This document shows, piece after piece, positions 5,100-49,988 of a DNA stretch of 64,000 nucleotides. The notes below the pieces were generated by a model, which was not told the DNA's origin, made no database searches, and saw nothing but the letters and a program-made list of their open reading frames with translations. A program made the translations under genes and the position numbers. This DNA is from Antedon mediterranea. Taxonomy: Eukaryota > Animalia > Echinodermata. The first letter of the stretch is position 1, and every line of letters begins with the position of its first letter. Where the stretch lies: the NCBI RefSeq assembly GCF_964355755.1, contig NC_092672.1:14136001-14200000 (forward strand). The letters run 5' to 3'.

Positions 5100-5335
5100 G
5101 TAGAGTTGGGTAGGGTTAGGACCCTTGACTGTCATACAGACAGACCGGGTTCAATTACTAACAACTCCTAGTCTACTCAGCTATAAATGTGTACCTGGTT
5201 GAAAATACTAGAGAAGAAAGGTGTTGTGGAAAGGAACTGGCCACCCTCTACCACATAATGCAGAGGCTTTTAGTACAATGAGCTCCTACTAACACCTCAT
5301 TACCTCAGAAATGAATATGGGACTTACCTTTACAG
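5100..5335 (+). mobile_element. Degenerate tRNA-derived SINE
   Basis: B-box-like GGGTTCAATTAC near 5147, central CTACTCAGCTATAAATGTGTACCTGG resembling conserved invertebrate SINE cores, and a GGGACTTACCTTTAC-type tail. Confidence 0.5.
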
Positions 5336-6169: not shown

Positions 6170-7020
6170 ACTACCGGCTGCTGAGTTCCAAGTAGTTATG
6201 TTTCAACCCTATACATATAATCAGTGTAATAAAATTACCTAGAATGCATTTTAGCTCATAAAAGGTTGCAACTAACATTTTTATGGAAAAATGTAGAGTT
6301 TCTTCTGATGTATTAAAAACAAACATCACAATTTTCAATTCTGAATCATTCGATGCACAAGACAAAGAGTGAATCTTCTTGAATCCAGTAGCACATATCA
6401 GACTATATGTACTTCAGCTTTTCAGTACCCACATTTAAGATTACAATGTCAAAGCTTTTAGTGGAATAAACCATAACAAGAATTTTGAAACAGCTGTTTT
6501 TCTGTAAGGATAAAAAGCACTATACTACAAACCGTGAGTACCAAGATGTTCTTTAATTACTAACTAGAGGTATGATTCTTCGAGTAGTACTCACTTGTTA
6601 TCTAACTATGCAGTTTTCTAATTCTCAAAATCGTACACATACTCGCTAAAGATTCAGAATAGAGTCTGGTGATTCCAGCAAAACTGACTCCAACTATCTC
6701 TTTATACTACAATACATTTCTATTCTGAGCGAGGTGCTATGCCATGTGTGGAACTCTTTCATTGGATGGCAGCCGTTTTTTTATTCTGCTTTTTGGAATT
6801 GGGGCAACTGTAGCATCATACCTGACAGCATTAGACGTGATGTAAGCGTTCTCTAATACTGTCTGGTAATGATGTTATTGGTGTCTTTTTTACAGCCTTC
6901 ATCTACCTATTGAGCTCTCTTTACTTGCCAGTTTAATTTTCTAAATTCATCAGTTCTGTCTTCATTGCTCTTCAAATGTCGTCTCCACTTTGCCACAGAT
7001 GTAACTGACACCTAGATTTA
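6170..7020 (-). pseudogene. Highly decayed non-LTR reverse transcriptase remnant
   Basis: The minus strand gives, in RT order and with many stops or frameshifts, ATVAPIPK-like, KAFD.V-like (AAAGCTTTGACATTGTA), EKL, WIQ and IVMF..T-like fragments. Confidence 0.35.
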
Positions 7021-7073
7021 GGTTAATACTGCTGTAGTTTTATGAGAGTAGCTTTCCAGATTTCAAGAACCCT

Positions 7074-7360
7074 CAGATGATGTTAGTGAAACCAGTTGAA
7101 CAATGATATCAACAAAGATGCCAAAAAGAAACTTCAGATGATGTTAGTGAAACCAGCTGAGTTGGATGCCAAAAAGAAACTTCAGATGATGTTAGTGAAA
7201 CCAGCTGAGTTGGATGCCAAAAAGAAACTTCAGATGATGTTAGTGAAACCAGCTATAGTTGGATGCCAAAAAGAAACTTCAGATGATGTTAGTGAAACTA
7301 GCTTAGTTGGATGCCAAAAAGAAACTTCAGATGGTTTTAGTGAAACCAGCTGAGTTGGAC
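7074..7360. repeat. 48-bp minisatellite, ~5-6 copies, decaying into diverged copies to ~7570
   Basis: Unit GATGCCAAAAAGAAACTTCAGATGATGTTAGTGAAACCAGCTGAGTTG; explains ORF 7096..7353. Confidence 0.9.
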
Positions 7361-9447
7361 AACTATATCAAAAAGATGTCAAAATGAAACATCATTTATT
7401 GTAAGTAAAACCTGGAGATTTAGAGATGACAAAAAAAACCCTCAATTGATAAAAGTCAAACCAGAAGACAATTTTAAAAACAAAGATGTCAAAAGAAACT
7501 GACTGTAAGTGAATCCAGAGTTGATCAACTAATATCATCAGAGATGCCAAAACCTGAGTCAAACTAAGTACAAGCTACTGTATAAAAAAAAGCAAAATAG
7601 TACATTTTGATGGATCTAAAGAAAGAACCTGAAAGAGAAGAAAACACTATCGGAAAAAGTAAAAAAATAAACAGTTATGATGCCGTATGCAACAAAACTA
7701 AGATTGAAAATGTTGGTTTTTTATGTTGTTAATTATTCTGTTAATGATACTGACGACAGGATTGTAATCAGTATTGGCTCTTTGATCTGTAGAGTTTGGA
7801 CTTAATCTGAAGTTGAATGATTATATTTTGGTAAAAATGAGATTATTAATTGTTCAATTTAAAGTTAATGCTGATCAACTTGAATAATTTAAAACTGATA
7901 GAATCATTAATAACTATAGCAACACTGGAACTACTAGAGGAATGTGACTATAAATTACTACCATATTGTTAGAATAAAAAGATGAATCGATTAAAGTCTT
8001 TCCTGTTGTTTGCTAAAAGAAATAAAGCTCAATCATCATCTAGAATTGAAATTTCCACACATTATGTCATTATTGCTGACTGCTGCCTTATATCTGCTGT
8101 GGAAATTGATAGATATGTCCATTTATTTAAAATAGTGACGGTTCGTTTTATCTTGACTTGATTGCATACTGTAGGTGATTTGATGCATGTTTTTATTTTG
8201 CTACACATGGTATAAATGCAACACATACAGTCCAATAATAATCAATAGACCACCATCAGTACTTTTTTACATTTTTTTTTTTTGGTTTTGCTATATTGGT
8301 TCAATTCCATTCTGTCTGTTTTATTACAGTAGATCCAAGCCAAGATTAAGAATTTAATTGTGTATAGTCAGTTATTACCAATTCAAAATCTTTGCCTATA
8401 AATTTACAAAATAATGAAAAGCAAAAACAGAATGTTAATTTGTATATATAAATATTTGTTGATGGATTCAAACATGTACTACAAATGGAGAGAGGCATTA
8501 TATACCAATAGATAACAGTTTTGGTCCTCTCCTTCATATTTTTTTTTGTGTAATGTATTATACCATATGGACAATTGTCTGAAATAAAAGTTGAATTGAA
8601 TTGAATTATAGCTAATTATAATAATTGTGTGAAGTTTAATTTATAAAAAAGGAACTAATTCATTTTTTGCAAAGAATGTTAGGTTTAAATAACACTGTAT
8701 AAAGCTGACTCCAAATAAGGGAAGTAAAGATTTAAAGTTTTTAGGTTTATTCAAAAAAACGTTTTTTAGGTAAACAAATTATACTGATTGTCAACCTGAA
8801 TCAACATAGCATACTTGAGGTTTGTTATAAAAGGTAGAAGCTTAACCCAAAATACTCTGTTTCAGTGAATATGATTACATGGTGATAAATGAAGCATGTC
8901 CTGTATTGTTTACAGAGTGGTTATTGAGTTTCTGGAGGAGTTTGTAATACAGTTTGTGTTATTGTCCATGTAAAGCTAGATTATGCTAACTAGACTACAT
9001 CCTGGATTTAATATTTTCCCTAGAAGGTTACACATTGTCCATATTGTCTTGTGAAGGTTGTGTTTTTTGTTGCTTTTCCTCTAAAGCTTTTGGTTTAGAT
9101 TAGTGGGTCTGTATTCCTACCATTGAAAATAACAGTACTGTAATTAGTATTTAAAAGCAAAAACAGCTAATACCATATATTGTTTATTTTGAAAATATCA
9201 TTGAAATTATGTACATATTTTGCTAATTGTATTAATTGAAAATATACTATTAAGAAACAGTTCCTGTAATTAATTATTGTTCTTCTTGTTTTGTCATGGA
9301 CTGAACTGAAAAATTAATATTGCAATTAGCAAAATGAAGTTTCATTATTATCCTAAATACAGTATGACAATTATACTGTAATTAAATATTTCTATTGATG
9401 GTTTATACTGTCAGCTTTGCTTTCCAATTAGATAATTAAGAATTACC

Positions 9448-9623
9448 AATCATACCGTAGTGAACCTGTAATCATACCGTAGTGAACCTGTAATCATACC
9501 GTAGTGAACCTGTAATCATACCGTAGTGAACCTGTAATCATACCGTAGTGAACCTGTAATCATACCGTAGTGAACCTGTAATCATACCGTAGTGAGCCTG
9601 TAATCATACCGTAGTGAACCTGT
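9448..9623. repeat. 22-bp minisatellite, 8 copies
   Basis: Unit AATCATACCGTAGTGAACCTGT. Confidence 0.97.
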
Positions 9624-10009
9624 ACAATTTCTAATTACTTTTCAATTTCAATGAAAATAAAAAACTGAATATGAACAACTAAATACCTTTTCCACAGCTG
9701 ACCTCAAACAAAACTTGTTTCATTTCTGAATAAATATTCTTTGTACTGTATACCTTTATCTGTAACCTCTGACACAGATTGTGTGTATGTATATACACTG
9801 TAAAAATGGTAAGCTGGGTTCATTTTCTGAAATTGCAGCAATACTGCCCCACACTGTCAAGTTGTTGGTTTATGGTTTTAACTTTTCTTTTTCAAAGTTC
9901 CCAGAAAGTATTTAAATATTCTTACACTCACATGTACATTTGGTCAGTGTATTTGCGCAACAATGTATTAAAAATATGATTGATAATAAGTATTTACCAT
10001 ATTTTACAG

Positions 10010-13000
10010 AAAGAAATACGAGAAACTTTGCTGCAAAAACAAAAAACTTTGCTGGAAAAGAAAGATCCCAAATCAATGCAAGAGTTGAGAATGAAGTTCT
10101 TGAATCAAGCAAAGAAATACTTTGGTGTTCCATATGCTAAAAGATATCACCCACCAGAATGTATGTTTTGAAATTACTCAAAATTGCATTATTTATTTAT
10201 TCAATAAACTTTAATATCTTTAATAAAAAATGTTAGATTTTCCAAAAATGTATGTATTAATCTTATAAATCATAAGTGAAATGAAAGGTATTATTAATCC
10301 AGTAGTGTCCATCTCAAGAAAATAAGTAATATGAATGGTGATTGCCGTTTTAATATATTAAAATTGCTTTTCAATTAAATAATTATTCTAACTACTGTAT
10401 GATGGCATCGAGAGTCCACACTACAACAAATGATATAGATAATTGTCATGTAAATTAACAGCAATGGCCTGGATATGGCTGGTAAATTTAATCTTTTTCT
10501 TTTTATTATGTCTCAAGATAAATAATTATACTGATTATCTGAAATTTACTCTTGGTCTTTTGTTTACCTTGCAGCTTCAATGCATAATGAGCCTTTATTC
10601 CTAGACTGTTGCGGCCTGACACGGCGGATTCTTCGTGATCTGAAGGAAGACTTTGGATTCAACATTGGACCTTGGAACCAAGCTTACCAGTATGACACAT
10701 TACCTATTTCAGTAACGGAAGAGGAAATGTTGCCAGGGGATCTGGTGTTTATAACAGGCACCTATTTCAACCCAAAATGTAAGGAAAAACATGGTTACAT
10801 AAAATATAGCGCCTGTATAGAAATTTACTGCAACTGTGAATGTACACTATAGGCTGGCCAATGAAATATTATTTCAGTTGGTGCCTAACGTTTTTCTGAG
10901 CTGGGGGATTTGGTAGATAGAGCCCCCCATCTAGAGAAAGTGCTAAAGGTTATTTGACATAGACTATTAAGATATAGTTCTCAATTAAAGATGAATGAGC
11001 AACTAACAGGATAATACAGTATTTTCATCATGCTGGATCTATTTCAGGAAAACCATCTTTCCAAAATTATTTTCAATTGTACATAAACTTTTTTTTTTTT
11101 TAAATCATCATTAAAATCTTTAAAGTTTAGTTTAGTACGGGTTATGTATCCCCTTTTAAGAATACCTTTTAAGAATACTGTAGCCCTGGACTAAATCCTA
11201 AAGTCCAGGCTAATTGTAAATTTTAAAAATAGACAACTGCACCTGATGATCAGTATTATGGTAATGTTTACTATTAATGTTTTACAAGTTGTCTGGAGTA
11301 TAGATGAATTTCTATGATTGATCAGATTGCGTGTGAGCTCTGTTTCTTTAAGGACACATCCAATACTGCTAACACACCCAATGTTTGATTGAATGCTGTA
11401 TGTATTGAATCTTCAGAATACATAATGTGTTCAAACATTCTACCTTGTTTGTTTAACCCAGTCGCTATCAAGCTGAACGTGAACTTCTTGGTGAAAACCC
11501 CATCATAATACATAGCTGATGTTATCAATAGATTTCCGGTGTAATAAATAAGAATAGGTGATTGATTAGGTATTCACCACTATTTGCAAACTGTAAACAG
11601 GCATTTGTAAGATTGTTCTACCCGTCATACATCATGTGACAATATTTACGTTGTCTGCTCCCACGCCCTTGTAGAGTGTTTTGTTAGTGGTTGTTTTTGT
11701 CGATTCATTGTGTTCAATACCAGTAAACTTAATTCCATATAATATGTAGATTTATACATGACTCATTTTAACTGTGGACCGTAACATTTTCTGTATTATG
11801 CTCCTGAATCTTTATCATAAAATCCATTCTCACAATTTGAATGAATATTTATTAAAAGGAATCAGTAAGTTAATATACTGTATGGATAAAATTTGATTTG
11901 TTTAAAATTCATTAAATAATATGGTAGATAATGAACCAACGGCATGCTATTTAAACTCTTATTTTCATAATTCAGTACGGTAAATTCTACAGTAACATTA
12001 TTATTCTAATTACATGCAGAAATTAAGATCTACCTGCAGATAAAAATCATATTTAATAATATTATCTGATTAATTATCTGTTATTGTTTGGCAAGCGAAG
12101 TCATTGAAATTTTAATATCATCTTTCATTCTATTACCTAAACCTACCCAGAGCTATCATCATTATCATCAAGTACAATAAAACGGGGTAGTTTTTAGAAT
12201 TTCTTTTTTTTTTTTCAACAAAAAACAGTGGTATTCTAATTGACTGAAATCTCTGGGTTTTAAAGTAGTTAATATCAAATTGTGAAGGCTTAGTGTAGTT
12301 CCTGGGTTAATCCCCATTAGTACCTCAGACACAAAGCACTGTAGTACATGTGAATTAATGCATTTGAATTGTATACTTTGATGATGGCCTTGTCCTGGTC
12401 TTAGTAACACTGCTGTATTAAAATATTAGGCCACCCTGTTCTTGTTATTAACTCTTCATATTGTGTATTTATAGATTATTATGAATTAATGTATATTATT
12501 AATTTTTGGGACATGTCCTTGTAAAACATAGATAAATCCTTTCCAATGTAGCTTCACTCATTATTTTTCATTGGAGATTAAACACATTATACTATCAATA
12601 GATGCATCATAATGCGTTTTGTGTTGTTTCTATAGACCTTTAAATGTTCAAGTTACCAGGATTTATTCGTCTTTTGAAGGACAAACTCTTTCATTAAATT
12701 CAAATCCTTTGTGATATGAATATTCGTTAAAATGCTTTTCATTGTGATTTGGTTTGAGTGTCTTTTTCTGATATTAGTGATTTATTACCATACGTGTTGA
12801 TGTGTAAACAAGGTCAACTATTTAACATAAGGATGTGACTGAGCTATCTAATTCATGGTCAGAACACTCATCAGGTGGCAACTAATCACTTCTCAAAAAA
12901 AAAAATTTAATTCCATGATTTTCATGGTTGAACATTGATTTGTTTCCTCAATGGAGTTAGGGGGAGTTGCAGAGTCACTTAAAACCCTAATTATTGTACA

Positions 13001-16000
13001 CTTTTTAAAGAATTTCAACCTAAAAAATAACAATTCTATACATTTATTTTCTTATTTCATTATAATTAATAATAACGTTAAACAATGATGTATTCATGTG
13101 ATACTGTACTAGCGAGACATTTACATCATTTATTGACTTAAAATATGCTGCTTCACAAGTCAAAAAAAGTCACACAAAAATTATTGGCAAGCATTTCTTG
13201 CTCATCTTAACTGGCTAGAGAGGCCTACATCCAGACCAAAAGTCAATACTACCCGGGATATGCCTGTTTGTGAAATCGGACATAAAGTAGGAGTGGGATT
13301 AAACCCGAAGTAGCATTATAACCAAGGATAGTATTCCTGTTCTTTATCAATAGAAAGTAAAATTTGAACTTCTGAAAAGAAAGCCAAAGAAAGAAATTTG
13401 TATAAACTATGTTTGTGTGTGAATAATAGCTTTCATTCCACTGCTCATCTTCTTCAAGTCTGTTTGTGTGTGTGAATAATAGCTTTCATTCCACTGCTCA
13501 TCTTCTTCAAGTCTGTTTGTGTGTGAATAATAGCTTTCATTCTACTGCTCATCTTCTTCAAGTCTGTTTGTGTGTGTGAATAATAGCTTTCATTCCACTG
13601 CTCATCTTCTTCAAGTCTGTGTGTGTGTGTGAATAATAGCTTTCATTCCACTGCTCATCTTCTTCAAGTCTGTTTGTGTGTGTGAATAATAGCTTTCATT
13701 CCACTGCTCATCTTCTTCAAGTCTGTTTGTGTGTGTGAATAATAGCTTTCATTCCACTGCTCATCTTCTTCAAGTCTGTTTGTGTGTGAATAATAGCTTT
13801 CATTCCACTGCTCATCTTCTTCAAGTCTGTTTGTGTGTGTGAATAATAGCTTTCATTCCACTGCTCATCTTCTTCAAGTCTGTTTGTGTGTGAATAATAG
13901 CTTTCATTCCACTGCTCATCTTCTTCAAGTCTGTTTGTGTGTGTGAATAATAGCTTTCATTCCACTGCTCATCTTCTTCAAGTCTGTTTGTGTGTGAATA
14001 ATAGCTTTCATTCCACTGCTCATCTTCTTCAAGTCTGTTTGTGTGTGTGAATAATAGCTTTCATTCTACTGCTCATCTTCTTCAAGTCTAGACCAAAGCC
14101 TCCACTATTATACTTTAATTAAATATGCAATCTTGAACAAGCCACTGTTTATGGTGTTTATATGGTAGTTCAATATTATAATCTCTAACAGCCACTGTTT
14201 ATGGTGTTTATATGGTAGTTCAATATTATAATCTCTAACAATTTAGAACTTCATTACCAAGCCAAAACACTTTAATCCCGACTCCCACATATTTGAAATG
14301 TAACAATTGTCGTATTCGATTGGGAACTTTCGTTGTCAACGTAAAGATTCGTTGAGTACTTTTTGTATTCGAATTGTAAATTTGTGCTCAACAGAAAGTC
14401 ATTCGAATAGAAAACGTTGACAACGAAAGCTTTTTCGTTAAGAACAATCTCAACGCTCAAAATACTCCGTTAAAGAAGTACTCAACGGAAAAACTGTACT
14501 CAACGGTGAAAGTCTAAATCGAATACGACAAATGTAATAATTTGATATGTTTTTATTAATAATAGACATAGTAACTGACAAAATGAGCCCAAAACTTATT
14601 TTGTGTTTCTTGTTTTCAAAAATATTTATCTACGATAAACAGAAAATACATTTACCGTATTTAAGATTGTGTCTTTTTTCTCAACACACATTAACCACCA
14701 AGCTACAGCTCCATTGCAATTACAGTATTATAATAATAATTAAATTTTAATTTATTTAACAGCAAAAGCTCAAAAACATGATATGGTTCACGTAGAGATT
14801 TGGCTTGGAGATGGAGAGAAGACAATTGGTGCAAGGTGGCAGAAAGGCGTGGTTCAGGTGTTTGATTCATACAAGTTTGTGTCTAAAAGCTACTACAACA
14901 TGCAGTATCACTTCAAATCTATTGACACCTGGTTACAAGGTGTTTGTAGAAGGTAACTAATTAATGAGAAATATAACTAAAGTCTCAATCATGCATGACT
15001 TAATTTGGTAAAATAGTCGTAAATTTAACCTCATGGTTAAATTAACCAAGTCCAATGGTTATTTTTATCGACCATTTCCTGCTCAAAAGAACTCAACATG
15101 TTCTCTGTAAAGATCAATCTGAACATGCAACCTACTGTATGTGAATAAATCGTTTTAAATTTAATTTAAAACTAATGGCGTAAAACTTGTCTAAGAGAAA
15201 AATATCAACACACAAAGAAGCTATTAAGTAAAGTTCTCTCTCTGACTGATTCATCAAATATACACAAATGTACAATTGACAAGAACTAATAACTAAATAT
15301 CTTATAAATAGCCACAATAAAAAACAAATACAATAGTACAATTGTTAATTAACTGTAATTGTGTTGTGGTTTTTACCATATCATCAGAGACTATAAAGTT
15401 ATCATATTATTATCATTTGGGAAATCTCAAATTCACATTCATACATCCAATTCAAAGCAAACATACATTATACTGTAAACAGATAAATTTTAAATCCGAT
15501 TTTCTTATTCATTATACAATTAAAGGGCAGAGACGTACAGTAGCTCTATGCTAGTCTTGTATACGACTAGGCCTAGGTTTGATAGATGATAGATAGTCTT
15601 GCCAACATTACTTCTTCCAACGGCATTGTTTTCTTGAAACATTTTTATATCAAAACTCTGTCTGTCAGTGTGTCAGAATTTTCTTAACAATATCACTGTA
15701 ACTGATATAATAGGACTTTAATTTTCAACATATAAATTAATATAAAGTTTTATTAAATGTATAAAAACAATAATTAATGAGGTAGTTAATTTATAGTAAA
15801 CACATCTTACTTTTATTAATTTGATACTAACTAGACTATATCTAATTTTGCTGACCCATCATTTTGATGTTGAACAACCATCAGGCAATCAAGTATATGC
15901 CACACCCATTTCATTGAAATTAATCAATATGCTACAATGCGTCGTCATATTACTGCTCAAAGCAGCAGCATTTGCATTTTGGCCATATTTGTAGGATTAA

Positions 16001-17762
16001 TATATTTTAGGTCACATATTACCCACAAAAAGTAGTTCCTACGTGTTGCTTCCTTAATGGTTCAAGGTTAGTAGGGCTTAGATTTAAGTCAGGCAAACTT
16101 TGTAGCAGACCTTATGGGCTTACAGGCTAAATACATAAATTGGCCTGTTTTTACAGATATATTTAATATTTATTTCACTTATTGTTGGTAACAAAATTGT
16201 TATTATTTAAAATCTTTGTGATGTACATACAGTAGCTAGATTTAGAGCTTATAATAAAATACACTTTATTTAAAACTGAATTCACTCTTGCTTGATTATA
16301 AAATACTGGCTAAAGGTCACGTACAGGGAGGAGTATGTTTAGTTTACAATGACATCATCTTCAGTATATTTCTATTGTGTATTTAGGAGCTGTGATTGTT
16401 TGTATGCTCTATTTGTTTTGGTTGAACTGTTTTTATTCATAATAATTTTATACTGTTACCACGATTTAAATGTTTAATTTTGTTTCACAAAATGATTGAT
16501 AGATTTAAAAATAATATCCAAGTATATACAGTATTACCATATAAACGGTGTTAAATAAATAGCATAATTCTTGGCCTTAGTATCATAATGTCAACCAGAA
16601 TTACAAAGAAATTGCTGCAGCAACTATTATTGCTGATCTGTCACTGAAAAAAGAAAGGAAAATTCAGTGACAGGAGGGGAAACAATGCAGTTACGAATGA
16701 ACATACACTAAGCTTGTTATTTAGATGCCATGTATGGGCACCTGAGTCTTACTTCATTTCCAACAAATTGTTTACTTCAAAATAATTGCAGAACACAATC
16801 AGTACACACAGCAATAAAAGCATAGGCCAAGCCTACTATTCAATTACTGTATATGGTTCTTGGTCACTCTCCCAATATCAAATTACTCCAGAAAGCCACA
16901 GCCTCCAGCTATGGTTTGCTCCACCACGCATCCTGGATTTGCCCCTGAAAAAGATCAACAATAATAAATAATAGTAATAATAATCTTGTAAACGATACCT
17001 TTATACCGGTGGTACACACGGTCTAAAAAGAACAAGTGAAAACTTTAAAACGACAATAAATATTTAAACTCAAAGAACACAACACAAAAATTACTTATGG
17101 CATCGAGTCATCAATCAATAAAGATGATCGTTTTTTAATTTTTGTTAACCTCCTGCCTTAACCACCGGACTAACTGAACTGTTAAAATTACAATTGCTTC
17201 TTTTTTTTTTGTCAGTTATTGTCCTGAACATGAATGGTGCTTGACCAAATTCACACCTGGGATTAAATCAATCTTCTCTGTTGAAAATGAGCAATCTGAT
17301 GAGGGAGCCAGCGACTGTGAAGATGATGGCAACGATGAAAATACAGAAAACTTGCTTGGTCATGCTCCACATCATGAACCAGCCATGCATGACCTACCAA
17401 CACACACACTTGTGACTAATACACAATCAAACAATACACCCATCCAACATCAAGATACTAAATCAACACAGGCACAAAAGCAAGGTGTTAACAACACAAC
17501 GTTACTGCAGTCAAGTGTAAAGAATGCACCCACACTGTATCAAGAAAATAACAAGAAGAACGTGAGATACCAAGGTGATGTAAAATACAAAACAATAGAT
17601 TGTTATGAGTACAGGGAGCTTGTTAGCCAACAACCACTCTCTGTAAGCATACACAGAGAAAGTCTGCAGCAGCACTACCAAGAAGGCAGTGAAGGGCCTG
17701 CTCCTGTTGACGGTGATACTGAGAAGAAGTCAGATGCTTCATCTAATAGTAAAGGTGTGTAG
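10010..17762 (+). CDS. NlpC/P60-domain (papain-fold cysteine peptidase/amidase) protein, 5'-incomplete; may be the N-terminal half of a TTLL10 fusion
   Basis: Exons 10010-10160, 10575-10778, 14763-14952 and 17216-17762 (stop TAG), or 17216-17754 if spliced onward. All GT-AG with matching phases 1,1,2. Joined protein: ...KFLNQAKKYFGVPYAKRY...LFLDCCGLTRRILRDL...MLPGDLVF...HDMVHVEIWLGDGEKTIGAR..., matching NlpC/P60 motifs A..Y.G.PY, DC(S/C)G, PGDLVF, HV.I..G.G. Start exon not identified. Confidence 0.85.
13410..14089. repeat. 51-53-bp intronic minisatellite, 13 copies, with a variable internal (TG)n
   Basis: Unit TGTT(TG)nAATAATAGCTTTCATTCCACTGCTCATCTTCTTCAAGTC. Confidence 0.97.
14141..14240. 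repeat. 50-bp exact tandem duplication
   Basis: GCCACTGTTTATGGTGTTTATATGGTAGTTCAATATTATAATCTCTAACA twice. Confidence 0.9.
14303..14535. mobile_element. Small palindromic MITE-like element
   Basis: Inverted ends ACAATTGTCGTATTCGATT / AATCGAATACGACAAATGT and internal inverted GTTGAGTACTT / AAGTACTCAAC subrepeats; TSD not resolved. Confidence 0.6.
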
Positions 17763-18611
17763 TGGTACAATACTGAGTGTTCACTGATTTCTGATAACTG
17801 TACATTCAACTCTCACAAAACTGGACTCCCTGAAAACCAGACACACTCCCAAAAGCGTCTTTTACACCTGCTCCGGCAAATAAATTCGCATCTTAATGCT
17901 TCATTTTCATTTCGTTTTACTTGATATTCATGTGAAAGCAGCATCAAAAACGAAATGTCTGTAATGTTGTATGCGAAATCTGACATGCACTGGAGCCTGA
18001 CCAAAGCAGGTGTGAAAGACCCTTTATATTTGATACTCTCATAACTTAAAAACTGCAAAACTGACTTTGTGAAACTCCCTAAACTGACAATAAATATTAG
18101 AGACTTTTCTGAAAGCCATTTTAGTTCAGTTTTGAGTAAAAGATTTGAATGCACTATATAAATAGTTTTAAACATTTATTGTTGTTACTGTGTCGTTAAA
18201 ATGTTTTAAATGATGATTTGAAATGTTTTCTTGTACATTTTATTCTGTTTTATAACAAATTTGATTGCAGCATTTAATTTTGTATTCTGAATTTGCATTA
18301 TTTTATTCCGTTATTTGGTTTTATCCATTTTTTTTATAAATTTATACTTTATAAAGTATAAACATGGAGGTATTGTTTTATACCTCCATGGTATAAACAA
18401 ACAAAAAACGAGATACAACTTTTTACAAACAAGTTATAAATCCTTTCAATTCAAAAAACAATTGCAACCCCAAAAGAATGATTGCTTTACCCAAAAAAGA
18501 AATGCAATATTTGCCTGCAATGTTTACAATATAATTGTGGGTATTGATACTGATCAGATTGTAAATTTATTTTGAATCTTGTATTTCTGTTTGACAGAGC
18601 AGAGCAGATGT

Positions 18612-18771
18612 CTTATACATGTTGTATAATGTGTCAAATGTATCAATGTACCTTATACATGTTGTATAATGTGTCAAATGTATCAATGTACCTTATACAT
18701 GTTGTATAATGTGTCAAATGTATCAATGTACCTTATACATGTTGTATAATGTGTCAAATGTATCAATGTAC
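18612..18771. repeat. 40-bp tandem repeat, 4 copies, in the predicted short-isoform 3' UTR
   Basis: Unit CTTATACATGTTGTATAATGTGTCAAATGTATCAATGTAC. Confidence 0.95.
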
Positions 18772-19038
18772 TAAATTGTTTTATTGTATTTGAGTTTGAT
18801 TTATAGCTTATTGTCAATGTTACTATTCATAGGCGTGTACTACCCTTTGCAGATGCTCTTCACTGAATGTACTTTATTATTTATTCTGCTAAATATTGAG
18901 TTGATTTATACTTTTGTCTTTAATACACTAACTCATCATGCTATTCTTTCTAGAATGCTTCATGTTCCATTCATATATTGTCTGTTTTTTAATGTATAGT
19001 GTACTACAGAGATTAATGTGTTTATTATTTTAAAGTGC

Positions 19039-19090
19039 AATAAAAATAAATTATATTCAGTGTGTATGTATACTTGTTTTCTCTTGCCTG
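19039..19090 (+). terminator. Candidate polyadenylation signal of the peptidase-only transcript
   Basis: Tandem AATAAA at 19039-19044 and 19045-19050 followed by a GU/U-rich tract (TGTGTATGTATACTTGTTTTCTCTTG). AATAAA is common in AT-rich DNA, so support is moderate. Confidence 0.5.
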
Positions 19091-22000
19091 TCTTGGCATT
19101 TAAATATGTGTAACACTTGATTTATAATAATCTTGTGGGTTTCTGTGTGTTTAATCATAGAGATATATAATATCTCTATGATTTAATTTATTCCTTGAGT
19201 TTATTCATATTATGTAAGAGTTTGTCTGAAGACTCATGAAAGACGAGCATGACAATTGAATCAATTTAAAAAAAACGAAAACTGTGTAAACCACTTCTCT
19301 TAAAAAGTTGATTTCTCTTCATTGACTGTTTAAAGTCACCTGCACAATGAGCATATAAGACATGAAACAGTTTACACTAAATCCAGGTAAAATGTTTTTC
19401 TTTTCTGACTTGTGATTTTCATAAAGTTCTGATATAATATATCATGATATAAACATGATTAATGGTAAATTATGTTGATATAAAAAGTGATATTGTTTTA
19501 GACTTCAAATTTTTAATATTATTATAGTGTTAAATAGTATCAATTGCACTCAAAAATAGGTCAAACCAACAAAGGTCATTTTGAGAAAGCAAATCCGTTT
19601 TCTTTATAATTCTTTACACTCAGTGACCTATTTTGATGGCCTCTTTTGCTTTCATTTATAGTCTGCTTAATTCTACATTATTCTGAAGTGTTTATGTGAA
19701 CAAATGATATCAAACCATGAGCAGATTCACTAAATTTCAAAAATTGTAAAGCAAAAGATACACTATGACATCATATTAAACTCGTCACTGTATCTACCAT
19801 TTTTAGGACCTTGCACACCCTGTCTATTTTAACTTACAGCTGACTGCATGCAAATTATTAATATTTAATGTAATATTTCATGGTCATAAATAATTGTTTT
19901 TTTATATAAATTCTTGATTAGCATTTAGTACTTACTCATATCTTATGTACCTGTAAAATAACAAAATACTTACAGTGTTGTTTTTAATAAACGCCCACTC
20001 TGAGATTTATAAAAAATAAATTAGGTAAGCGGTTATCTGAACACCACTGAATTTTTACAATCGTTGAACGACCACACAAGATTTTTATTTTCTGTTAAGG
20101 GACAATTTCTATTTTATATTTTCTGGTGTCTTTTTAACTTTTAATGGATTTATACGATTGAATACAAAAATTGTGATGTGAATCATCTGTGCTTTACAAT
20201 CCAAGATTTCCTTTGCTATGGCTCTGCTGAACCACAACCTGTTAGGGTTAAGTCTCCTTTTCCTGAGTGTACGCATTTTTCGCACTTTTGTTCTCTTGTT
20301 TCGAACTGAAAGTCATCAAGGACAATTCACTTTTGTCTATCAGCATACTTAACTGTGACCTATGAAGCTATTTAATTAGCCTATTCAGTCAACTATTAAC
20401 TGCCTTGCATGATTTTATATTTTGCATGGCCATAATACCATTTCATTGTACTTCCGTATTCATCATAAAAATAATTACTTTTTCATATTTACCTACAAAA
20501 TTATTTGTTTTATTCCTTTGCTTATTTACGGCAAATTTTTAAATCATTTGTTTGTCACTAACTAAATCATGATGAAAAATCCTTTAAAAAAATTATTTAA
20601 ATTTGAATATAAAATGACTAAAAAAATGGATTGTAAATTTTCAAATAATTTATGGTTTTGATATCGTTTATTCAATGATTTAATGTGGGAAACTGGCAAC
20701 ATAGCTATTAATAGCGGAGTTATCTGTGTAATTTATAAATTTAGAAAAATATCAGTGTTTTGCAACCTCTTTGGACCATGACATACAACCATCGGAACCT
20801 CTGCAACCGTAAAATTATTTTAACATACATAATACACAAATATTGCTCTAACAAAGTATACTGAAGTTAATACTACTGGGGCTTAGAGCGATTGAAAATA
20901 TTGACAATAATATGTTTTTGAAAGACTATAGTTTTATATGTTAGCGCTCTCTGAATCCGCCCCTATTGATCACCTGAGCAATGAATAAGCTGAGGCAAGG
21001 CAATTTTATATATATGCAATGGAAACAGCACTAATATTTTGCAGGTATGCGTACGTTCAATGAACCAGCTAGATACAAGCCTGTTAATAGTATACTAATC
21101 AGAAACCAATTCGCCACTCATCTTTTTTTGATGCTCAAAAAATATGTCTCACCCCATATTTTTCAGAATGTTTGACTATAATATTAATATTAATTCAAAT
21201 GTTGAAATAGACCATTCTATAAAAGGCAGAATGCTGGAGTTCAAGCGTGGTGGGTAAGCAAGAAAGCCTTGAGTATGACAGCATGTGAATTTGTTCTTAA
21301 GTTATTGCAGGTTCACTGAAACCAGGTTGAAATGTGTTTGTTTGCTGTTGTTGAGTCAAAGAAAGCATTACTTCAATGCTTTTGAACATTGCAATTTTTC
21401 TCATATTTCATGCTCTGAATTATGAACACATTTTGTATACTGTAATGCCAGTCTCTAGACCAAGGTGTTTCATTCATTACTAGGTGATTAATAGAGATTA
21501 AAGTAATAATTTACATGTTAATTTATTTAGAAAATAACATGTGACACTCTTCCTGGAATACGCCAATGTCTGGAGTCCAGTAGACAGCTCTTAATGATAA
21601 ACAACATAACTGAGACTAAAGTAATTTGTGCAATTCTGCTTTAATTATAATAAATATAATATATATTTTGTCAATATTTTTTGGTTGCAGAACAAAAAAT
21701 CTATTTGCTAAATTTTCACCTTGGCCACTTGTTATTTAGTCATTAAAATACCATTGTACTTTAACAACCTGTACATTCTATATTTTTACTTCAATTAAAT
21801 AACAAATTATTTGATAAAATTAAAGATCAAGACAAATAAGCATATTTCATTATTTTGACACAGAATTGAAATATAAAAACATGATTTTAATCTGGTTTCC
21901 TGATGTTATAAAAGATGTTATTTCACTTCTGGTAAAGTTTGATAGTATTAACAGTTTGTGGATTTGATATGACAAATCACAAACCCACCAACACTATGAT

Positions 22001-22466
22001 CACCTTCCAAATCAATATGCAAATTATTACTTTAGTGTAATATTTTATGGTTATAAATTATTATTTTTTTTTTAAATATCTTAGTATTTTATATCTATAT
22101 ATGCATTTACAAAATACTAAGATATTAATTACAAATTGTTACTATTTCTTAATGTTAAAGAAAAAACTAATACTATAAATTATTGTAAACACAACATTTC
22201 ATTAAAATATCATTTTTAACTTAAATATTGTTGAGCTGTAATTTTATGATGTACTTTTTTAATCATTGTGTATTTTTATATTGTTATTCTACATTTTATA
22301 CTTTATTTTTATACGATATTTTTATACGATATTTTTATGTGATAAGTGAGCAAATGCAATTTCCAGTTTATTTGGACAATAAAAGTTATCTGTATCTGTA
22401 TCTGTAACATGATAAACAGTACTGCGCAATTGAAATCAATACATGCATTGTTTTTGTTGTTTCCAG

Positions 22467-25400
22467 GTATGAATGCGACCAATGTAAAATCATCGAGTAG
22501 TAGCAAGTCAGCTAGCGGAGATAGTGGAAAAGCCAACAGAGCCCAGCACACTGATAAATCTAAAGGCAATTCTCTAACTGTTCAAGCACCCCCAACCTCA
22601 GTTCGTGGACATGGTCCATATTTTTTCATCGGTGGAGGAAATGGAGTTTCATTGTAAGATAAATTCTTTTAAACCTTCAAAATTAACCCTACAGTAAGTC
22701 CACGTTGTGGCTTACCACTCATTTCTATCAATTTAACTGCTTTTTATGGATAAAATGGAAATTGTCTTAGATAGTCTAGAATACACTACATACCAACAAT
22801 AGCAAAATCTGTTGAATTTTAAAATGTAAACAAACCTACTAGTGAAAAAGTTTTATTTAATAATAAAATCGTTTTGGCTTCCTACTCTTTTTCAAAGCAT
22901 GCTTGATGTCACTGTTCCCTGTACAATATTGACTGCAAGATACAGTATGGACCCATACAATCTTTATTAGGGGTGCCTTTTTCCTGAAGAACAAATGATT
23001 ATGAATGTGATTTTTTTTGTTTTTAAAATTTCTCAATATCTTTATATGTATTTTATTGTTTTTAGAGTAGAAGAACCTTTGTTGTCTCGAGGATGGCGAC
23101 GAATTCATGATAAAAACAGTGACAACTACCGGCTTCGCTGGGTTGAACTTAAATCACAGATCAATTATACAACTTTCAAAGCAGGTAAACATCAGTTATT
23201 TTAATGAGCATGCAAATATTTTGTAATTGTTTCTGATATCATTACCAGTTTGGGTGTTTGTATTTGAAGACTAATAACAACATATACAGACAACAGTACG
23301 TTAACATATACAGACAACAGTACGTTAACATATGCAGACAACAGTACGTTAACATATACAGACAACAGTACGTTAACATATACAGACAACAGTACGTTAA
23401 CATATACAGAAAACAGTACGTTAACATATACAGACAAAAGTACGTTAACATACAGACAACAGTACGTTAACATATACAGACAACAGTACGTTAACATATA
23501 CAGACAACAGTACGTTAACATATACAGACAACAGTACGTTAACATATACAGACAACAGTACGTTAACATATACAGACAACAGTACGTTAACATATACAGA
23601 CAACAGTACGTTAAAGACCCCTTCCCTGCAATTTCGGACGTTTTTTGGAAAATAATACATATATATCACTTTAAAAACATTAAACCATGTCATTCCTTGT
23701 CTTAAATGTACGTTTTATGGTAAATTATGATAAAAAGTGAGAAACAATGCACTACCTAAGTAGCTCGCGGCGATCGACCTCTCGTGGACGGTCTTAGGCC
23801 TAGCCTAGCTAGGCTTAGTTTTGTAGGCCTAGCTGGTAAACATCGGTAACGTACGAACATCGTACGCTACCTATATACCTAGCCTGACGTTGTATAGTTG
23901 CTGCATTTATTGTCTTTCTATTTTTGCCAGACTCCGTTGATACAAATTGGGGAAAACCCGGTATTTTCGCTGAAAAGTTAGGAGTCTTCCATTTGTTTTG
24001 GCCTCACGATCGATCGAAAAGTGGGCGAATTACAGGTGAAAAACAAAAATATCAATCCGCGCGCAGTGCATTTTGGGATTTATAGCGGGCCGCTATAATT
24101 ATTAGAATCGACTTATTTTTCACATTTTTAACCGTTTAAAGACGAAAAAAGTTATCGCAATAGGATCATATAGTATTATTTTTACATTAAATATAGTTTG
24201 TGATCTCAAATTAGATCTAAAAAACGTAGGGAATGGGGCTTTAACATATACAGACAACAGTACGTTAAAATATACAGACAACAGTACGTTAACATATACA
24301 GACAACAGTACGTTAAAATATACAGACAACAGTACGTTAACATATACAGACAACAGTACGTTAACATATACAGACAACAGTACGTTAAAATATACAGACA
24401 ACAGTACGTTAACATATACAGACAACAGTACGTTAACATATACAGACAACAGTACGTTAACATATACAGACAACAGTACGTTAAAATATACAGACAACAG
24501 TACGTTAACATATACAGACAACAGTACGTTAAAATATACAGACAACAGTACGTTAACATATACAGACAACAGTACGTTAACATATACAGACAACAGTACG
24601 TTAACATATACAGACAACAGTACGTTAACATATACAGACAACAGTACGTTAACATATACAGACAACAGTACGTTAACATATACAGACAACAGTACGTTAA
24701 AATATACAGACAACAGTACGTTAACATATACAGACAACAGTACGTTAACATATACAGACAACAGTACGTTAACATATACAGACAACAGTACGTTAACATA
24801 TACAGACAACAGTACGTTAACATATACAGACAACAGTACGTTAACATATACAGACAACAGTACGTTAACATATACAGACAACAGTACGTTTCAGCTAAGA
24901 TTATACATTATATTATTACTGTACATTATAATAATTAAAATAATATTTTAATGTTTAATAAGTAAAAATAAATGTAACACTTAACAGATATTTCGCAATT
25001 CTAAAACACAATAAATAGGATAAATTCCATTGATTAAGAATGTTAAATGCAACATTTATGGTAGTATATCTTGTTCTTTATGATAACAATTATTTACAGG
25101 TGACCAATTGGTAAACAGAATACCAAATGGATATTTGCTGACGACTAAGACTGGTTTGTTTAACAGTCTCCGAGAGTATGAGCGTGTACTCGATAGAGTT
25201 TCAAGACCGAAATCACCACGCTCTATTCGTATGAATGACTTCTTCCCAGAATCCTTTGTGTTGGATCTTAAAGCAGACAGGGATGCATTCTTTGAAACTT
25301 TTAAAGGTTTGTTCTAAGTTCAAGTTCAAAAAACATTTATTTGTTCAACAATGGCATATTTTTTAACAGTGTAATATATAGGTGTGTACATATTTAAATA

Positions 25401-28400
25401 AAACAAGGCAATAAGCCATCATTTGGGGTCTTCTCTAGAAGAAATCAAGTTTCTTGTCTCGAGAAAGACCCCACAAACAATACAGATACATATAAACTAA
25501 TACAATTTACTACTTAAAATAATAAATAAAACAAAAAAACGATGGAAGAAAAATAGATACATTCAGTGAACTACAATCATAATAATATTAAAATTAGTAT
25601 AAAGAAATAAGATATTTGTTTAAATTTTTACAAAAATTATAAAGAGATTTCACTCTTCCCTTGTTCTAACTATTGTATAAAGATGTATGTTATTTTTAAA
25701 GAACCCATAATAAACATTTATTATTTATCTACAGTATACCTTAGCAAAAAATGTCAACTTTTTCAAAATGCATTTTAACATTTCGGAAAAGATTTCAATC
25801 TTTGGATATTTACACATCAAATTGGCTAATTTACAACATAAGATTACAATGTTACAATATAAGATTTTTTCTTGAGAAAACACACAAATTTCAGGTAGAT
25901 CCCCAGGCGACCTATGATATTATTTTCTACAGCACTAAAATTTGTAATTCTTTATGCAGAAGGTGAGACCTGGATTTGTAAACCAAATGGTATGAATCAA
26001 GGCAAAGGTATCTACCTCGTACGTGACCTCAGTGAGTTGAAAGAAAAGTACAGTGATGTTCAAGCTGATAAACCTCCAAAAAGAAAGCTGAGACCACATG
26101 CTAATCAGAGATTGATTCAGAGGTAAATACAATGAAACAATGATGATTATTACATAGAATCTCTATTTAATGATCATGTATTTATTTAGAGAACAATAAG
26201 GCATAATGATTAGAAATTGGACTGTCAGGTGAGAACCTGTATGCACCATTTGTTTATGTCCTCAGAATAGAATGTTGCTTTGTCTTTCAAGAGAACTATG
26301 AAGCCAAAGCATAAGCCACATGTGCACAATAAATAATTAGGTTGCAGAACAGAAGCTGTGTGCCAGACAGGGGTCCACGTACAGAACACTAAAAGCAAAA
26401 AAAGAACTAATAGCATTATAGTGCAACACTAACAGTACACTACAAATGTAGGCCTACCTATAAGTTAGAATACTTAAATGCAATCAACCCTGATAAATAA
26501 CTGGCTACACTATTCAGACAGTGAATGGTATCCTCATTTTCTAAGGATCATTAAATTAAGTGTTAAATCAGAAGATCTGTAAATTATATTGCATAGGTCA
26601 TATTTTGATAGAATGTATATACAAAATATAAAAAGTATAGCTGCTGTAGAGTAATTACAAGTCAACTTTATACATTTAAGGTAATTTTATATTATAACAA
26701 AAAATACTTTAATACATTGTATGAAAGGATTCCACTTTAAATTGTAAAAACGTTTCACTACATATAGGTACATTCCGAATCCTTTGCTGTTGAATGGTAA
26801 GAAGTTTGACGTCCGATCATACATGTTGATAGCTTCCACCACACCATTCATTGTATTCTTCCATCAAGGTTATTGCAGGTTGTCTTGCGATAAATATGAT
26901 CCAGATAGTCATGATTTGGCTCTACATCTCACCAATCAGGTAAGACACTAGCTTCACACATTCCATAATGCGTGATGGATACTTAGTACTTACTTACTGT
27001 TTTTTCAGAGGCAACTTTGATTCTGGCTTTTGTTGTTCCAGCTTTTGTTTGTATTAATTGTGATTTAATTACAGGTGCTTGACATGTATAGCATACGTAT
27101 GCCACCACATAGAATATATCATCATCATGGACTATTGACTGACATGACTCTCCATTTAACTCTATCGTCTACCAGTGCTCTCTAAAGCTTGGTTCTTAGG
27201 TGACAACGCAAGGACGTAAGCGCAACGCAAGCAAATTGACCAATGACAACCATCAGTTCAGATAATCCATCTCTTATTATTGGTCAAATTACTTACGTTG
27301 TGCTTACAACCTGAGAACCAAGCTTAAGATAGCTTGTGATGTGGTTACTCTTTACTTTCCTGCTCTTATACCAGTGTATATCCTGCACAAATATGTCACA
27401 CAATGACAATTGACTCAAGATCCATCTATAACATAATGTTAACAAAAACATGCGATAACAACTAGTGGTTGACATAAATTCATGTAGTGTTAGTTATTGA
27501 TGAAAAGCAAGTTTTGTAACTTGAACATCATAGATTTGTTATGTTATTAAGCTGTTTTTAGGGGCTACTGCAGAATAATTGTTAAAGGGCAAAAGACGGA
27601 ACAACATTGTTTTTGATCCATTTTCATCTACAATCTATACAAAGTGTAAGGTAATTTCTACCAACATGATACCATCTACAGTATTTATGATTTTAGATAT
27701 CAATTTTATTTTATTTTTAGTATCAACAAAAGAAAAATCCAAGTTATCAAGATGTTAAGGAAGACACAGTGTGGAGTATGGAACGCTTCAATGAATATGT
27801 AAATTCATTAGCAAGTGAGAAAGGTCTTAGCAAGGACTGGGTTCTCAACTCATTCACAGTAAGTGAACTCTGAGAAAGGTCTTAGTAAGGACTGGGTTCT
27901 CAACTCATTCACAGTAAGTGAACTCTGTGAGAAAGTTCTGAGTAAGGACTGGGTTATCAACTCCTTCACAGTAAGTGAACTCTGTGAGAAAGGTCTTAGT
28001 AAGGACTGGGTTCTCAACTCCTTCACAGTAAGTGAACTCTGTGAGAAAGTTCTGAGTAAAGACTGGGTTATCAACTCCTTCACAGTAAGTGAACTCTGTG
28101 AGAAAGTTCTGAGTATGGACTGGGTTCTCAACTCCTTCACAGTAAGTGAACTCTTTGAGAAAGTTCTTAGTAAGGACTGGGTTCTCAACTCCTTCACAGT
28201 AAGTGAACTCTGTGAGAAAGTTCTGAGTAAGGACTGGTTCTCAACTCATTCACAGTAAGTGAACTCTGTGAGAAAGTTCTGAGTAAGGACTGGGTTCTCA
28301 ACTCCTTCACAGTAAGTGAACTCTGTGAGAAAGTTCTGAGTAAGGACTGGTTCTCAACTCCTTCACAGTAAGTGAACTCTGTGAGAAAGTTCTTAGTAAG

Positions 28401-30033
28401 GACTGGGTTCTCAACTCCTTCACAGTAAGTGAACTCTTTGAGAAAGTTCTGAGTAAGGACTGGGTTCTCAACTCCTTCACAGTAAGTGAACTCTGCGAGA
28501 AAGTTCTTAGTAAGGACTGGGTTCTCAACTCCTTCACAGTGAGTGAACTCTGCACATACTTCTGCAAATCAAATTGACCTTTATTTCGTACATATTCCAT
28601 TTGTTAGTTTGAATGGAGGTACTTCATGGTTTTTGTAGTAACATTTTGCATCTGTAAGGTATTATTCTTTTACTGATCCTTCTGGGCCCCCATACAAATC
28701 TTAATACAGTAGAATCCCTATTAAGGGAACACCGTCGGCACCCAAATAAGGTGTCTACTTAATATAGTTTACTCTAAATAGGGATTGGCTATATTGTTAA
28801 TGTTAAAACATACTTCTCCACATTTGTTTCACAGGAAATAAACATTTAGGGTGTCCCCTGAATATGGGTCATGTCCAAAAGGAGGTGGTTTTTGTACTAA
28901 GATGCCTACTGTCTCAGGTTTTTTTTTTCATAATACCAGTTCATTGGTTCTTAGGTTAAAATCCTATTGGTTACAGTAAAACCAACATTAGTCCTCATTA
29001 ACAACCTACACTACTTTATTTCCAAAGACAAGATGGAACATTAAAGTTACAAATTATTGTGTAGCATTCATTCCTGCTTTTAATAAATTGATCGACTTGC
29101 TTTATTGTATTATCAAACTAAAGTTTTGTTTGTTTAATTTCTTTCAGAAACAAATGATGAAAATTATGACACACTGTTTTCATGCTGTTAAGAATAAATT
29201 AGAATGTCGCTATGGATTCTTTGAATTATTGGGCTTTGATTTTCTTGTTGATACAGACTTCAATGTAAGTACATTACACATGATACAAGTTACAGAAAAT
29301 ACAATTATTATTAGCTGAGATGTTGCAGTATTTAAAGCAATTTCCATTGAATAATTATTCATGAATGTCCAACTAACTTATAAATATGCATATCCCCTAC
29401 TAATGTGTTACTGATATCCATTATATATTATTCCTTGTTCTATTTTCAGATTTATGTTTTGGAGATAAATTGTAACCCAGCATTACACACAAACTGTGAG
29501 GTTTTGAAGCAACAACTACCACCAATGATAGAGGAAACATTAGGTTAGTGCGAGACTAGATGTATTTTAAAAAGAAATTTAAGTTTCAAATATTAAAAAC
29601 ACAAAAAATAATGCAGAGGTCAACTTAATTCCTTTTTGGTCTTTCAATTCATTTTATAAACTACATTATGAAAATGCTGCACAATATTGTCAAAAATATC
29701 TAAAATATAATTATGTCTATAAAATTACACTAACAAATATTTCAATTATTAATATTATAATTTACAGATATTGTTATTGAAGTATTTGAAAAGACGATGA
29801 AGCACAAAACAATAAATCCTATCCATTCAGTGAGGAGGTTTATACAGCTGTACAATACAGACACTAAAAGAGTTTCTTCTAGTAGACCAAAATCACTAAG
29901 TCCAACTAGACCACGTCCTACACCGATGTCACCGGTCAAGAAGAAACAAGCGCCACCAGCGCAAGCCAACCAACAAACACCACCGAACAAAGCTAAAGAA
30001 AGAACCAAAAGTACAACATCATTAAGAACATGA
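22467..30033 (+). CDS. TTLL10: Protein polyglycylase TTLL10 (tubulin-tyrosine-ligase-like ATP-grasp), 9 exons
   Basis: Exons 22467-22653, 23066-23184, 25100-25306, 25960-26122, 26768-26939, 27721-27858, 29148-29264, 29450-29543, 29768-30033, all GT-AG and phase-consistent (486 aa from ATG 22469). TTLL10-type [11 protein letters not shown]...GWRRIHD...LLTTKTGL and TTL core [54 protein letters not shown] in NQGKG is the elongase-type residue. Confidence 0.93.
23279..24890. repeat. 24-bp intronic minisatellite split into two arms by a transposon
   Basis: Unit AACATATACAGACAACAGTACGTT; arms ~23279-23614 and 24241-24890; explains the repetitive ORFs at 23201-24881. Confidence 0.97.
23615..24240. 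mobile_element. Non-autonomous DNA transposon with TTAA TSD (Kolobok-like), 626 bp
   Basis: TTAA at 23611-23614 and 24241-24244; imperfect TIRs AGACCCCTTCCCTGC / GTAGGGAATGGGGCT. AG...CT termini with a TTAA TSD fit Kolobok better than piggyBac. Confidence 0.75.
27186..27324. mobile_element. PIF/Harbinger-type MITE, related to the copies at 51777 and 53103
   Basis: TAA flanks on both sides; TIR AGCTTGGTTCT / AGAACCAAGCT; internal AACGCAAG subrepeats. Confidence 0.7.
27816..28551 (+). repeat. 57-bp tandem repeat of a TTLL10 exon 3' end plus its splice donor, 13 copies
   Basis: Unit GAGAAAG(G/T)TCT(T/G)AGTAAGGACTGGGTTCTCAACTC(A/C)TTCACA|GTAAGTGAACTCTGT; copy 1 overlaps coding exon 27721-27858. 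Confidence 0.95.
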
Positions 30034-49955: not shown

Positions 49956-49965
49956 AGTTTCAGAT

Positions 49966-49985
49966 GAATCCGGGCAGTGCCTCCA
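49966..49985 (-). other. Primer-binding site, most like tRNA-Thr
   Basis: Minus strand TGGAGGCACTGCCCGGATTC, 3 nt from the LTR. Its complement GAATCCGGGCAGTGCCTCCA resembles metazoan tRNA-Thr 3' ends; the isotype is recalled, not searched. Confidence 0.7.
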
Positions 49986-49988
49986 AAA

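Follow-up and report, generated by a model that had tools for sequence, protein, structure and literature searches.

Tubulin glycylation begins with a glycine joined to the gamma-carboxyl of a glutamate by an isopeptide bond and proceeds by addition of Gly-Gly peptide bonds, as described in bioRxiv 10.1101/2024.03.31.587457. The enzyme that would reverse this modification on tubulin is stated to be unknown in PMC4230590, PMC5666887, PMC12838686, and a 2025 preprint, and texts dated 2024, 2025, and 2026 still call a tubulin deglycylase unidentified, in line with a preliminary description of the DNA considered here, which had remarked that no animal deglycylase is established. Among the enzymes that build glycine chains, TTLL10 has been studied with a Xenopus tropicalis construct comprising residues 105-570 (bioRxiv 10.1101/2024.03.31.587457), and the TTLL10 literature searched contains no mention of an N-terminal peptidase. 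In Antedon mediterranea (GCF_964355755.1, NC_092672.1, 14,136,001-14,200,000, forward strand), a 64,000-nt stretch analyzed in full and referred to below as the window, a single spliced gene encodes an NlpC/P60 peptidase domain followed by a TTLL10-type ligase. The NlpC/P60 domain is a candidate deglycylase of tubulin glycine chains, a reading to which we assign a probability of about 0.5.

The gene could be rebuilt from 13 exons of the window, all with canonical AG acceptors and GT donors, which sum to 2547 nt and form a single open frame of 848 aa plus stop. The sum and the open frame agree with the preliminary description. The frame corresponds to residues 69-916 of an A. mediterranea RefSeq model and has no start codon; the RefSeq long isoforms carry 68 further N-terminal residues, for which tblastn finds no match in window positions 1-10009, and the gene start is upstream of the window. 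A query with exon 2 retrieves a 915-aa A. mediterranea protein with 100% identity that NCBI names 'uncharacterized'. The RefSeq cluster contains three isoforms of 916, 915, and 826 aa, each matching exons on either side of the 17754^22467 junction, and an in-frame Met at 10076 in exon 1 is the start of isoform XP_071945730. At that junction the join is in phase 1 and reads ...SNSK-G-MNAT..., as had been predicted, and the proposed codons for Cys (in DCCG) and His (in HVEIW) are both found where the preliminary description placed them. By exon, Pfam gives a weak NLPC_P60 match on exon 2 and TTL matches on four later exons. The features are as follows.

10010..10160, + strand: exon 1 in the window (an internal exon); end of a long N-terminal helix, G-x-P-Y motif, Tyr110 at 10133-10135
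10575..10778, + strand: exon 2; LFLDCCG with predicted catalytic Cys130 (TGT, 10607-10609), NQAY motif, PGDL strand; PF00877 E 0.0011
14763..14952, + strand: exon 3; predicted catalytic His196 (CAC, 14789-14791, in HVEIW), Glu198 at 14795-14797, Gly209 at 14828-14830, Arg211 at 14834-14836
17216..17754, + strand: exon 4; end of the peptidase domain, low-complexity linker, fusion donor at 17754/17755
17755..19050, + strand: alternative read-through of exon 4; stop at 17760-17762, probable 3' untranslated region, AATAAA at 19039 and 19045
22467..22653, + strand: exon 5; end of the linker, start of the TTLL10 core (YFFIGGGNG)
23066..23184, + strand: exon 6; TTLL10 N-domain
25100..25306, + strand: exon 7; TTLL10
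25960..26122, + strand: exon 8; 11-residue loop with the elongase-type Gln
26768..26939, + strand: exon 9; predicted catalytic motifs KFDVR, YCR, and HLTN; PF03133 E 1.6e-17
27721..27858, + strand: exon 10; TTLL10, with Val where the glutamylase donor Lys (TTLL6 K283) would be
29148..29264, + strand: exon 11; GFDF motif
29450..29543, + strand: exon 12; EINCNP motif, with Leu where TTLL6 K377 would be
29768..30033, + strand: exon 13; last helix, basic disordered tail, stop codon

Two features of the exon boundaries stand apart from this outline. A tandem acceptor at 25960-25963 accounts for a difference of one Glu before GETWICKP between isoforms X1 and X2. At 27815-28552, a 57-bp tandem array carries 13 copies of the 3' end of exon 10, each including the GT donor, and so creates 13 candidate donors, the first of which is used in the RefSeq models.

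Evidence for splicing across the junction comes from assembled contigs of four sequencing runs aligned to window positions 14100-23250: run X1 (sample S1, study P1), run X2 (sample S2, study P2), and the DNA-like runs X3 and X5. The GT..AG joints 14952^17216, 17754^22467, and 22653^23066 are present in X1 and X2, and the fusion joint 17754^22467, on which the preliminary description had rested its case, has depths of 67.6 and 147.7, respectively, contig depth being a poor measure of expression and neither run being on record as RNA. The DNA-like runs cover the same region evenly and lack these joints. For exons 1-3, two observations indicate splicing: the agreement with the RefSeq model, and a contig of X2 in which 358 letters precede exon 3, against the 355 of exons 1 and 2 together. 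The NlpC/P60 and TTLL10 parts therefore belong to one spliced gene.

Both runs also contain unspliced contigs that pass through the exon-4 donor, spanning 17727-18498 in X1 (depth 199.8) and 17727-18641 in X2 (depth 184.7). Read-through depth falls to 5 and 0 past 18996, near the AATAAA signals, a pattern that fits a second, peptidase-only mRNA, whose reading frame ends at the stop codon at 17760-17762 and which probably exists alongside the fusion; intron retention is the alternative explanation for these contigs. The same contigs bear on the idea that two neighboring genes are involved and that the fusion is a rare read-through or an annotation artifact. Read-through depth is at least that of the fusion joint, the short side of that joint is just 26 letters (plus 4 ambiguous), under the 31-letter bridging threshold, and peptidase-only records are numerous in databases. 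In both runs, however, the contig bearing TTLL10 starts within exon 4, and this fact, joined to the comparative evidence given below, makes separate genes extremely unlikely.

The assignment of the N-terminal domain rests chiefly on its predicted fold. An AlphaFold 2 model of residues 52-276, built from 103 sequences, has a mean predicted local distance difference test (pLDDT) score of 93.9 and a predicted template modeling (pTM) score of 0.87. Its top structural matches are NlpC/P60 peptidoglycan DL-endopeptidases (Foldseek E 3e-5; VIA-align Z 12.9, root-mean-square deviation 2.3-3.2 over 112-122 residues), followed by CHAP domains, whose Z does not rise above about 8, and by glutathionylspermidine amidase (Z 5.5), so the NlpC/P60 call made earlier from sequence holds at the level of the modeled fold. 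The Antedon domain has the Cys that opens the core helix and the strand-2 His of the papain-like NlpC/P60 architecture, and a profile search against PDB sequences aligns its DCC to DCS and its HVE to HVG of dipeptidyl-peptidase VI (3npf). The Pfam signal is borderline: PF00877 scores the Antedon protein (P0001) at 22.2 bits against a gathering score of 23, and 3 of 33 other scanned proteins exceed the cut-off. NlpC/P60 DL-endopeptidases cleave gamma-D-glutamyl amide bonds, an activity also given in the titles of entries 2evr and 3m1u.

Conservation was counted over 362 domain-bearing records, each position being scored in those records that have a residue there. Cys130 (358/358), His196 (356/356), Glu198 (356/356), Arg211 (354/354), and Tyr110 (347/347) are invariant, although these figures are inflated because the homologs were drawn from the best-scoring part of larger sets (best 120 of 447, best 120 of 189, and best 150 of 949, plus 45). 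The C40 family is described in PMC10318531 as having a Cys-His-His triad with the third His on strand 3. That His is replaced in 355/355 rows (Gly in 336, Ala in 18, Ser in 1), the canonical position being occupied by Gly209, encoded in exon 3, in Antedon. Glu198, two residues past His196, may stand in for it, judging from the sequence. The missing His, together with the precedent of inactive papain-fold domains that bind peptides in cilia (PMC3495828), could also point to a domain whose main task is to bind modified tails or to regulate the ligase, perhaps through autoprocessing of the linker, with no erasure. Such a role is improbable, given that the Cys, the His, and the tyrosine of the PY motif are invariant wherever the residue is present and that inactive binders usually lose them.

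A separate conserved element, C-x3-C-x2-H-x-W, lies past the peptidase core at the boundary of exons 3 and 4 (P0001 residues 248-257). C248 is kept in 223/240 rows, C252 in 221/233, and H255 in 218/229, and Cys131 is near-invariant; this could be a metal site.

The C-terminal half matches PF03133 with an E of 8e-52 and retains the residues expected of an active TTL-type ligase. Antedon K607, R670, R691, N710, and E801 are the equivalents of TTLL6 K174, R219, R241, N264, and E359 and are kept in 98-100% of fused homologs. The ligase domain scores 433-469 bits against vertebrate proteins that RefSeq names TTLL10 and at most 75 against the solved TTL, TTLL3, 6, 7, and 11, an assignment made by pairwise scores rather than by a tree of all TTLL subfamilies. 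In the corresponding comparison the Tetrahymena fusion partner scores 170-215 against 76, which indicates that protist partners are likewise TTLL10-like. According to bioRxiv 10.1101/2020.06.07.139295, a Gln at the position of TTLL6 Q180 marks elongases, and donor lysines at K283 and K377 mark glutamylases. Mapped by hand on the 6vzt alignment, Antedon has Q613, V728, and L819 at these positions, and the donor Lys is missing from 113/113 and 109/109 rows of fused homologs, which marks the partner ligase as glycylase-type. The ligase half is thus an intact TTLL10-type enzyme with predicted glycine elongase activity, and the nine-exon TTLL10 of the preliminary description is borne out by its conserved catalytic residues.

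An Arg typical of initiases takes the place of the Gln in 23 of 125 fused ligases, both named stramenopile records among them, while all named animals have Gln. The TTLL10-like ligases of fused homologs P0267, P0269, P0270, P0283, P0284, and others, and of loci L075, L077, L084, L086, L088, and L089, carry Arg, Cys, or Met at this position, which is reported to be invariant in TTLL10; the substitutions suggest altered regioselectivity in some protists. Structural models add little to the ligase assignment. The full-length AlphaFold 2 model has a pTM of 0.49, with pLDDT below 50 across the linker region (residues 251-477), and its Foldseek matches are TTL/TTLL structures alone, uninformative on the peptidase. 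An ESM Atlas search with the ligase half lists TTLL1/TTLL9 clusters among its matches and does not separate the subfamilies.

The architecture is ancient, judging from the sequences that share it, which range from ciliates and stramenopiles to reptiles, and is far older than the preliminary description could tell. Among the matches listed, the fusion occurs in sponges, cnidarians, echinoderms, a hemichordate, molluscs, a brachiopod, nemerteans, and an annelid, and, within vertebrates, in lamprey, a shark, sturgeons, tarpon, coelacanth, caecilians, axolotl, turtles, squamates, and crocodilians. Outside animals it is found in the ichthyosporean Chromosphaera, in Tetrahymena malaccensis and Ichthyophthirius, in an Ectocarpus record, and in records labeled Protocruzia and Spumella. 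Mammals, birds, insects, nematodes, fungi, and land plants are missing from the named matches listed, which suggests loss of the domain in mammals.

Among the 149 homologs that are at least 518 aa long, 126 have a TTL domain, and no second recurrent partner family appears in 33 other proteins scanned, mostly long and lacking TTL. Metagenome loci numbered 336; among the best 80 of them, a TTL lies downstream on the same strand in 71, while 7 end too early and 2 have no TTL; many 'stand-alone' peptidase records are therefore probably truncations. Judged from their records alone, apparently stand-alone forms occur in Gonium, Volvox, Chlamydomonas schloesseri, Stentor, Carpediemonas, and Andalucia. 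In a FastTree phylogeny of 237 domains, fused and unfused forms interleave with no stand-alone clade, the tree having no outgroup and weak deep support. Against a model of two neighboring genes stand both the near-constant order, the peptidase preceding the TTL in 135 of 136 two-domain proteins across linkers ranging from 1-5 residues in some protists to about 1000, and the in-frame continuity of 69 of the 71 TTL-bearing metagenome loci, many with ciliate-type TAA/TAG.

Prokaryotic kinship was addressed by searching 185,579 prokaryote genomes with two exact patterns, which returned a sole match, contig L001 (CAXXVR010000009.1). This 1.7-Mb contig, filed in a Desulfobacterium metagenome-assembled genome, was rejected as a bacterial copy; it is AT-rich, bears introns, uses a ciliate code, and is likely a misbinned eukaryote. 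Phage matches are ordinary distant NlpC/P60 proteins with 26-33% identity. The eukaryote-wide family and the ciliate-code nature of the only prokaryote match count against a peptidoglycan hydrolase derived from bacteria and used in feeding or defense, as are the NlpC/P60 enzymes of Trichomonas, and so do the fusion to a cytosolic ligase and the presence of a hydrophobic N-terminal window in just 22 of 345 Met-starting records. Such a role is very improbable, despite the fact that the best folds are peptidoglycan endopeptidases, Trichomonas NlpC1 included (Z 12.8), and that many host organisms eat bacteria.

With an intact amidase placed beside a glycylase across eukaryotes, the simplest substrate for the NlpC/P60 domain is glycylation itself. 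In the mechanism proposed, Cys130 would attack the amide, His196 would act as the base, Glu198 would take the place of the usual third His, Tyr110 would lie at the oxyanion site, and Arg211 may grip the glycine carboxylate. The ligase would extend chains while the tethered peptidase removes or resets branches, and the peptidase-only isoform would be a source of free eraser. Two bonds could be cut. Cleavage at the gamma-Glu-Gly branch point is the favored version, though as a specific claim it is still rather doubtful. It is favored because the nearest folds cut gamma-glutamyl amides, because the ligases with the initiase Arg are predicted to make the branch bond alone, and because the domain persists in volvocine algae, C. 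reinhardtii reportedly lacking TTLL10 and polyglycylation while having TTLL3 (PMC11244163). Trimming of Gly-Gly chains is the less probable of the two and on present evidence unlikely.

Several observations weigh against a deglycylase. The family departs from the C40 triad in every row examined, and the invariance of the remaining residues is inflated by the choice of best-scoring homologs. The hydrolase activity and its substrate are predictions from sequence and structural models. The absence of TTLL10 is reported for C. reinhardtii, and the volvocines bearing the domain are C. schloesseri, Volvox, and Gonium. Mammals both mono- and polyglycylate, yet none is among the named matches listed, so the domain is not a universal deglycylase. 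A tethered writer and eraser may risk a futile cycle, and the link to cilia is drawn from general knowledge of the organisms named. In vitro, moreover, TTLL10 limits the length of its own chains with no eraser present. A two-chain fold of the peptidase and ligase of a compact protist protein, P0192, returned 'no answer' with a score of 0.00 and is evidence for neither side.

The same active site is open to other substrates. An active isopeptidase or transamidase might act on a non-tubulin glycylated protein such as NAP1, on some other amide in cilia, or on a small metabolite with a gamma-glutamyl group: an invariant active site implies an enzyme and leaves its substrate unspecified, TTLL10 also modifies NAP1 according to the title of a cited work, and the stand-alone copies and short isoform indicate that the domain can exist apart from the ligase. 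That the domain is paired almost exclusively with a glycylase-type TTL throughout eukaryotes speaks for glycylation as its target and makes this unlikely. Somewhat less likely again is removal of glutamate branches (gamma-Glu-Glu), which would free shared acceptor sites for glycine. Fold relatives of the domain recognize the gamma-glutamyl donor side, which is common to both branch types, and glycylation competes with glutamylation for shared residues (PMC12838686); but CCP and TMCP enzymes already perform this task, and TTLL10, as an elongase, needs no free acceptor Glu and is recruited with the help of glutamylation (bioRxiv 10.1101/2024.03.31.587457).

Taken to its full extent, the deglycylase reading would make this family the long-sought enzyme: a single-chain writer-eraser that has accompanied the TTLL10 lineage since early eukaryotes, cuts glycine branches at the gamma-glutamyl bond, becomes a free eraser through alternative 3' processing or through gene fission, and escaped notice because it was lost in mammals. 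We advance this wider proposal tentatively and would place it clearly under even odds. Its merit is that a single compact, well-folded candidate, with its catalytic Cys already located, renders the deglycylase question testable, and that the domain occurs in Tetrahymena and in Chlamydomonas species, for which genetic tools and antibodies to glycylation are available. If correct, it would close a gap in the tubulin code, supply a reagent for removing glycylation from axonemes, and identify the ancestral TTLL10 as bifunctional. Should the domain not be a deglycylase, it would still define a highly conserved eukaryotic family of cysteine enzymes to which the literature searched assigns no function.

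Other elements of the window are mostly repetitive. A Ty3/Gypsy-type long terminal repeat retrotransposon occupies 44989-50000 on the minus strand, with an open 1512-codon pol (protease, reverse transcriptase, RNase H, and integrase) and a gag-like frame upstream. A non-long terminal repeat reverse transcriptase frame of the long interspersed nuclear element (LINE) type, with 664 codons, lies at 58483-60474 (minus strand), and decayed LINE-like fragments at 40925-42519 (minus strand). An open stretch at 63397-63678 (plus strand) matches DUF2452 (E 7.5e-6) and is probably an exon of a neighboring gene. Intronic minisatellites are found at 336-1004, 3732-4319, 7117-7359, 9448-9624, 13414-14089, 23279-23614, and 24241-24890, the last two having a common 24-bp unit.

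The Antedon reading frame is already known from RefSeq, and the label 'NlpC/P60 domain-containing protein' exists in databases. Full-text searches, with most subscription papers and supplements outside their coverage, returned no publication on the pairing of NlpC/P60 with TTLL10; Iyer et al. 2009 is said to survey domains fused to TTL ligases and might mention it. M20 peptidases, which include the Giardia deglycylases of 14-3-3, are unrelated to the NlpC/P60 fold. The literature searched names no deglycylating activity besides that of the Giardia enzymes, and their target is 14-3-3 instead of tubulin (PMC4230590). An argument similar to ours was made by Zhang and Aravind in 2012 (PMC3495828) for ciliary transglutaminase-like peptidases of the CCDC135 clade. 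These too have a papain fold and are predicted to erase peptide tags on tubulin, and some stramenopiles have them joined to a TTL-like ligase, but they belong to a different peptidase family and their proposed targets are polyglutamate and tyrosine; in the searched text of that paper NlpC occurs solely in the title of a reference.

Glutathionylspermidine/trypanothione synthetase-amidase has the same order of an N-terminal papain-fold amidase and a C-terminal ATP-grasp ligase, as the preliminary description pointed out. The parallel is one of analogy: its amidase is of the CHAP type and far more distant in fold (2io7, Z 5.5; 2vpm, Z 4.6), its substrate is a small molecule, and the Antedon ligase is TTL-type. 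As an analog, this enzyme shows that a single chain can hold opposing activities and implies no family kinship. C40 endopeptidases (SagA, Acd24020, YkfC-like 3h41, dipeptidyl-peptidase VI 3npf/3pvq, and Trichomonas NlpC1) share the fold (Z 12.4-12.9), the DC motif, the GD strand, and the His strand. They are 20-26% identical to the Antedon domain, which is eukaryotic, has Gly for the third His, family-specific Glu and Arg residues, and no evident signal peptide, and adds a long N-terminal helix and the C-terminal Cys/His motif. The TTLL10 polyglycylase of mouse and X. tropicalis resembles the Antedon ligase in its elongase Gln, its lack of donor lysines, and its overall score; in Antedon, however, the ligase is preceded by an NlpC/P60 domain of about 225 aa and a 200-aa linker. 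What is new is this variant of the TTLL10 architecture, together with an uncharacterized, highly conserved eukaryotic NlpC/P60 family.

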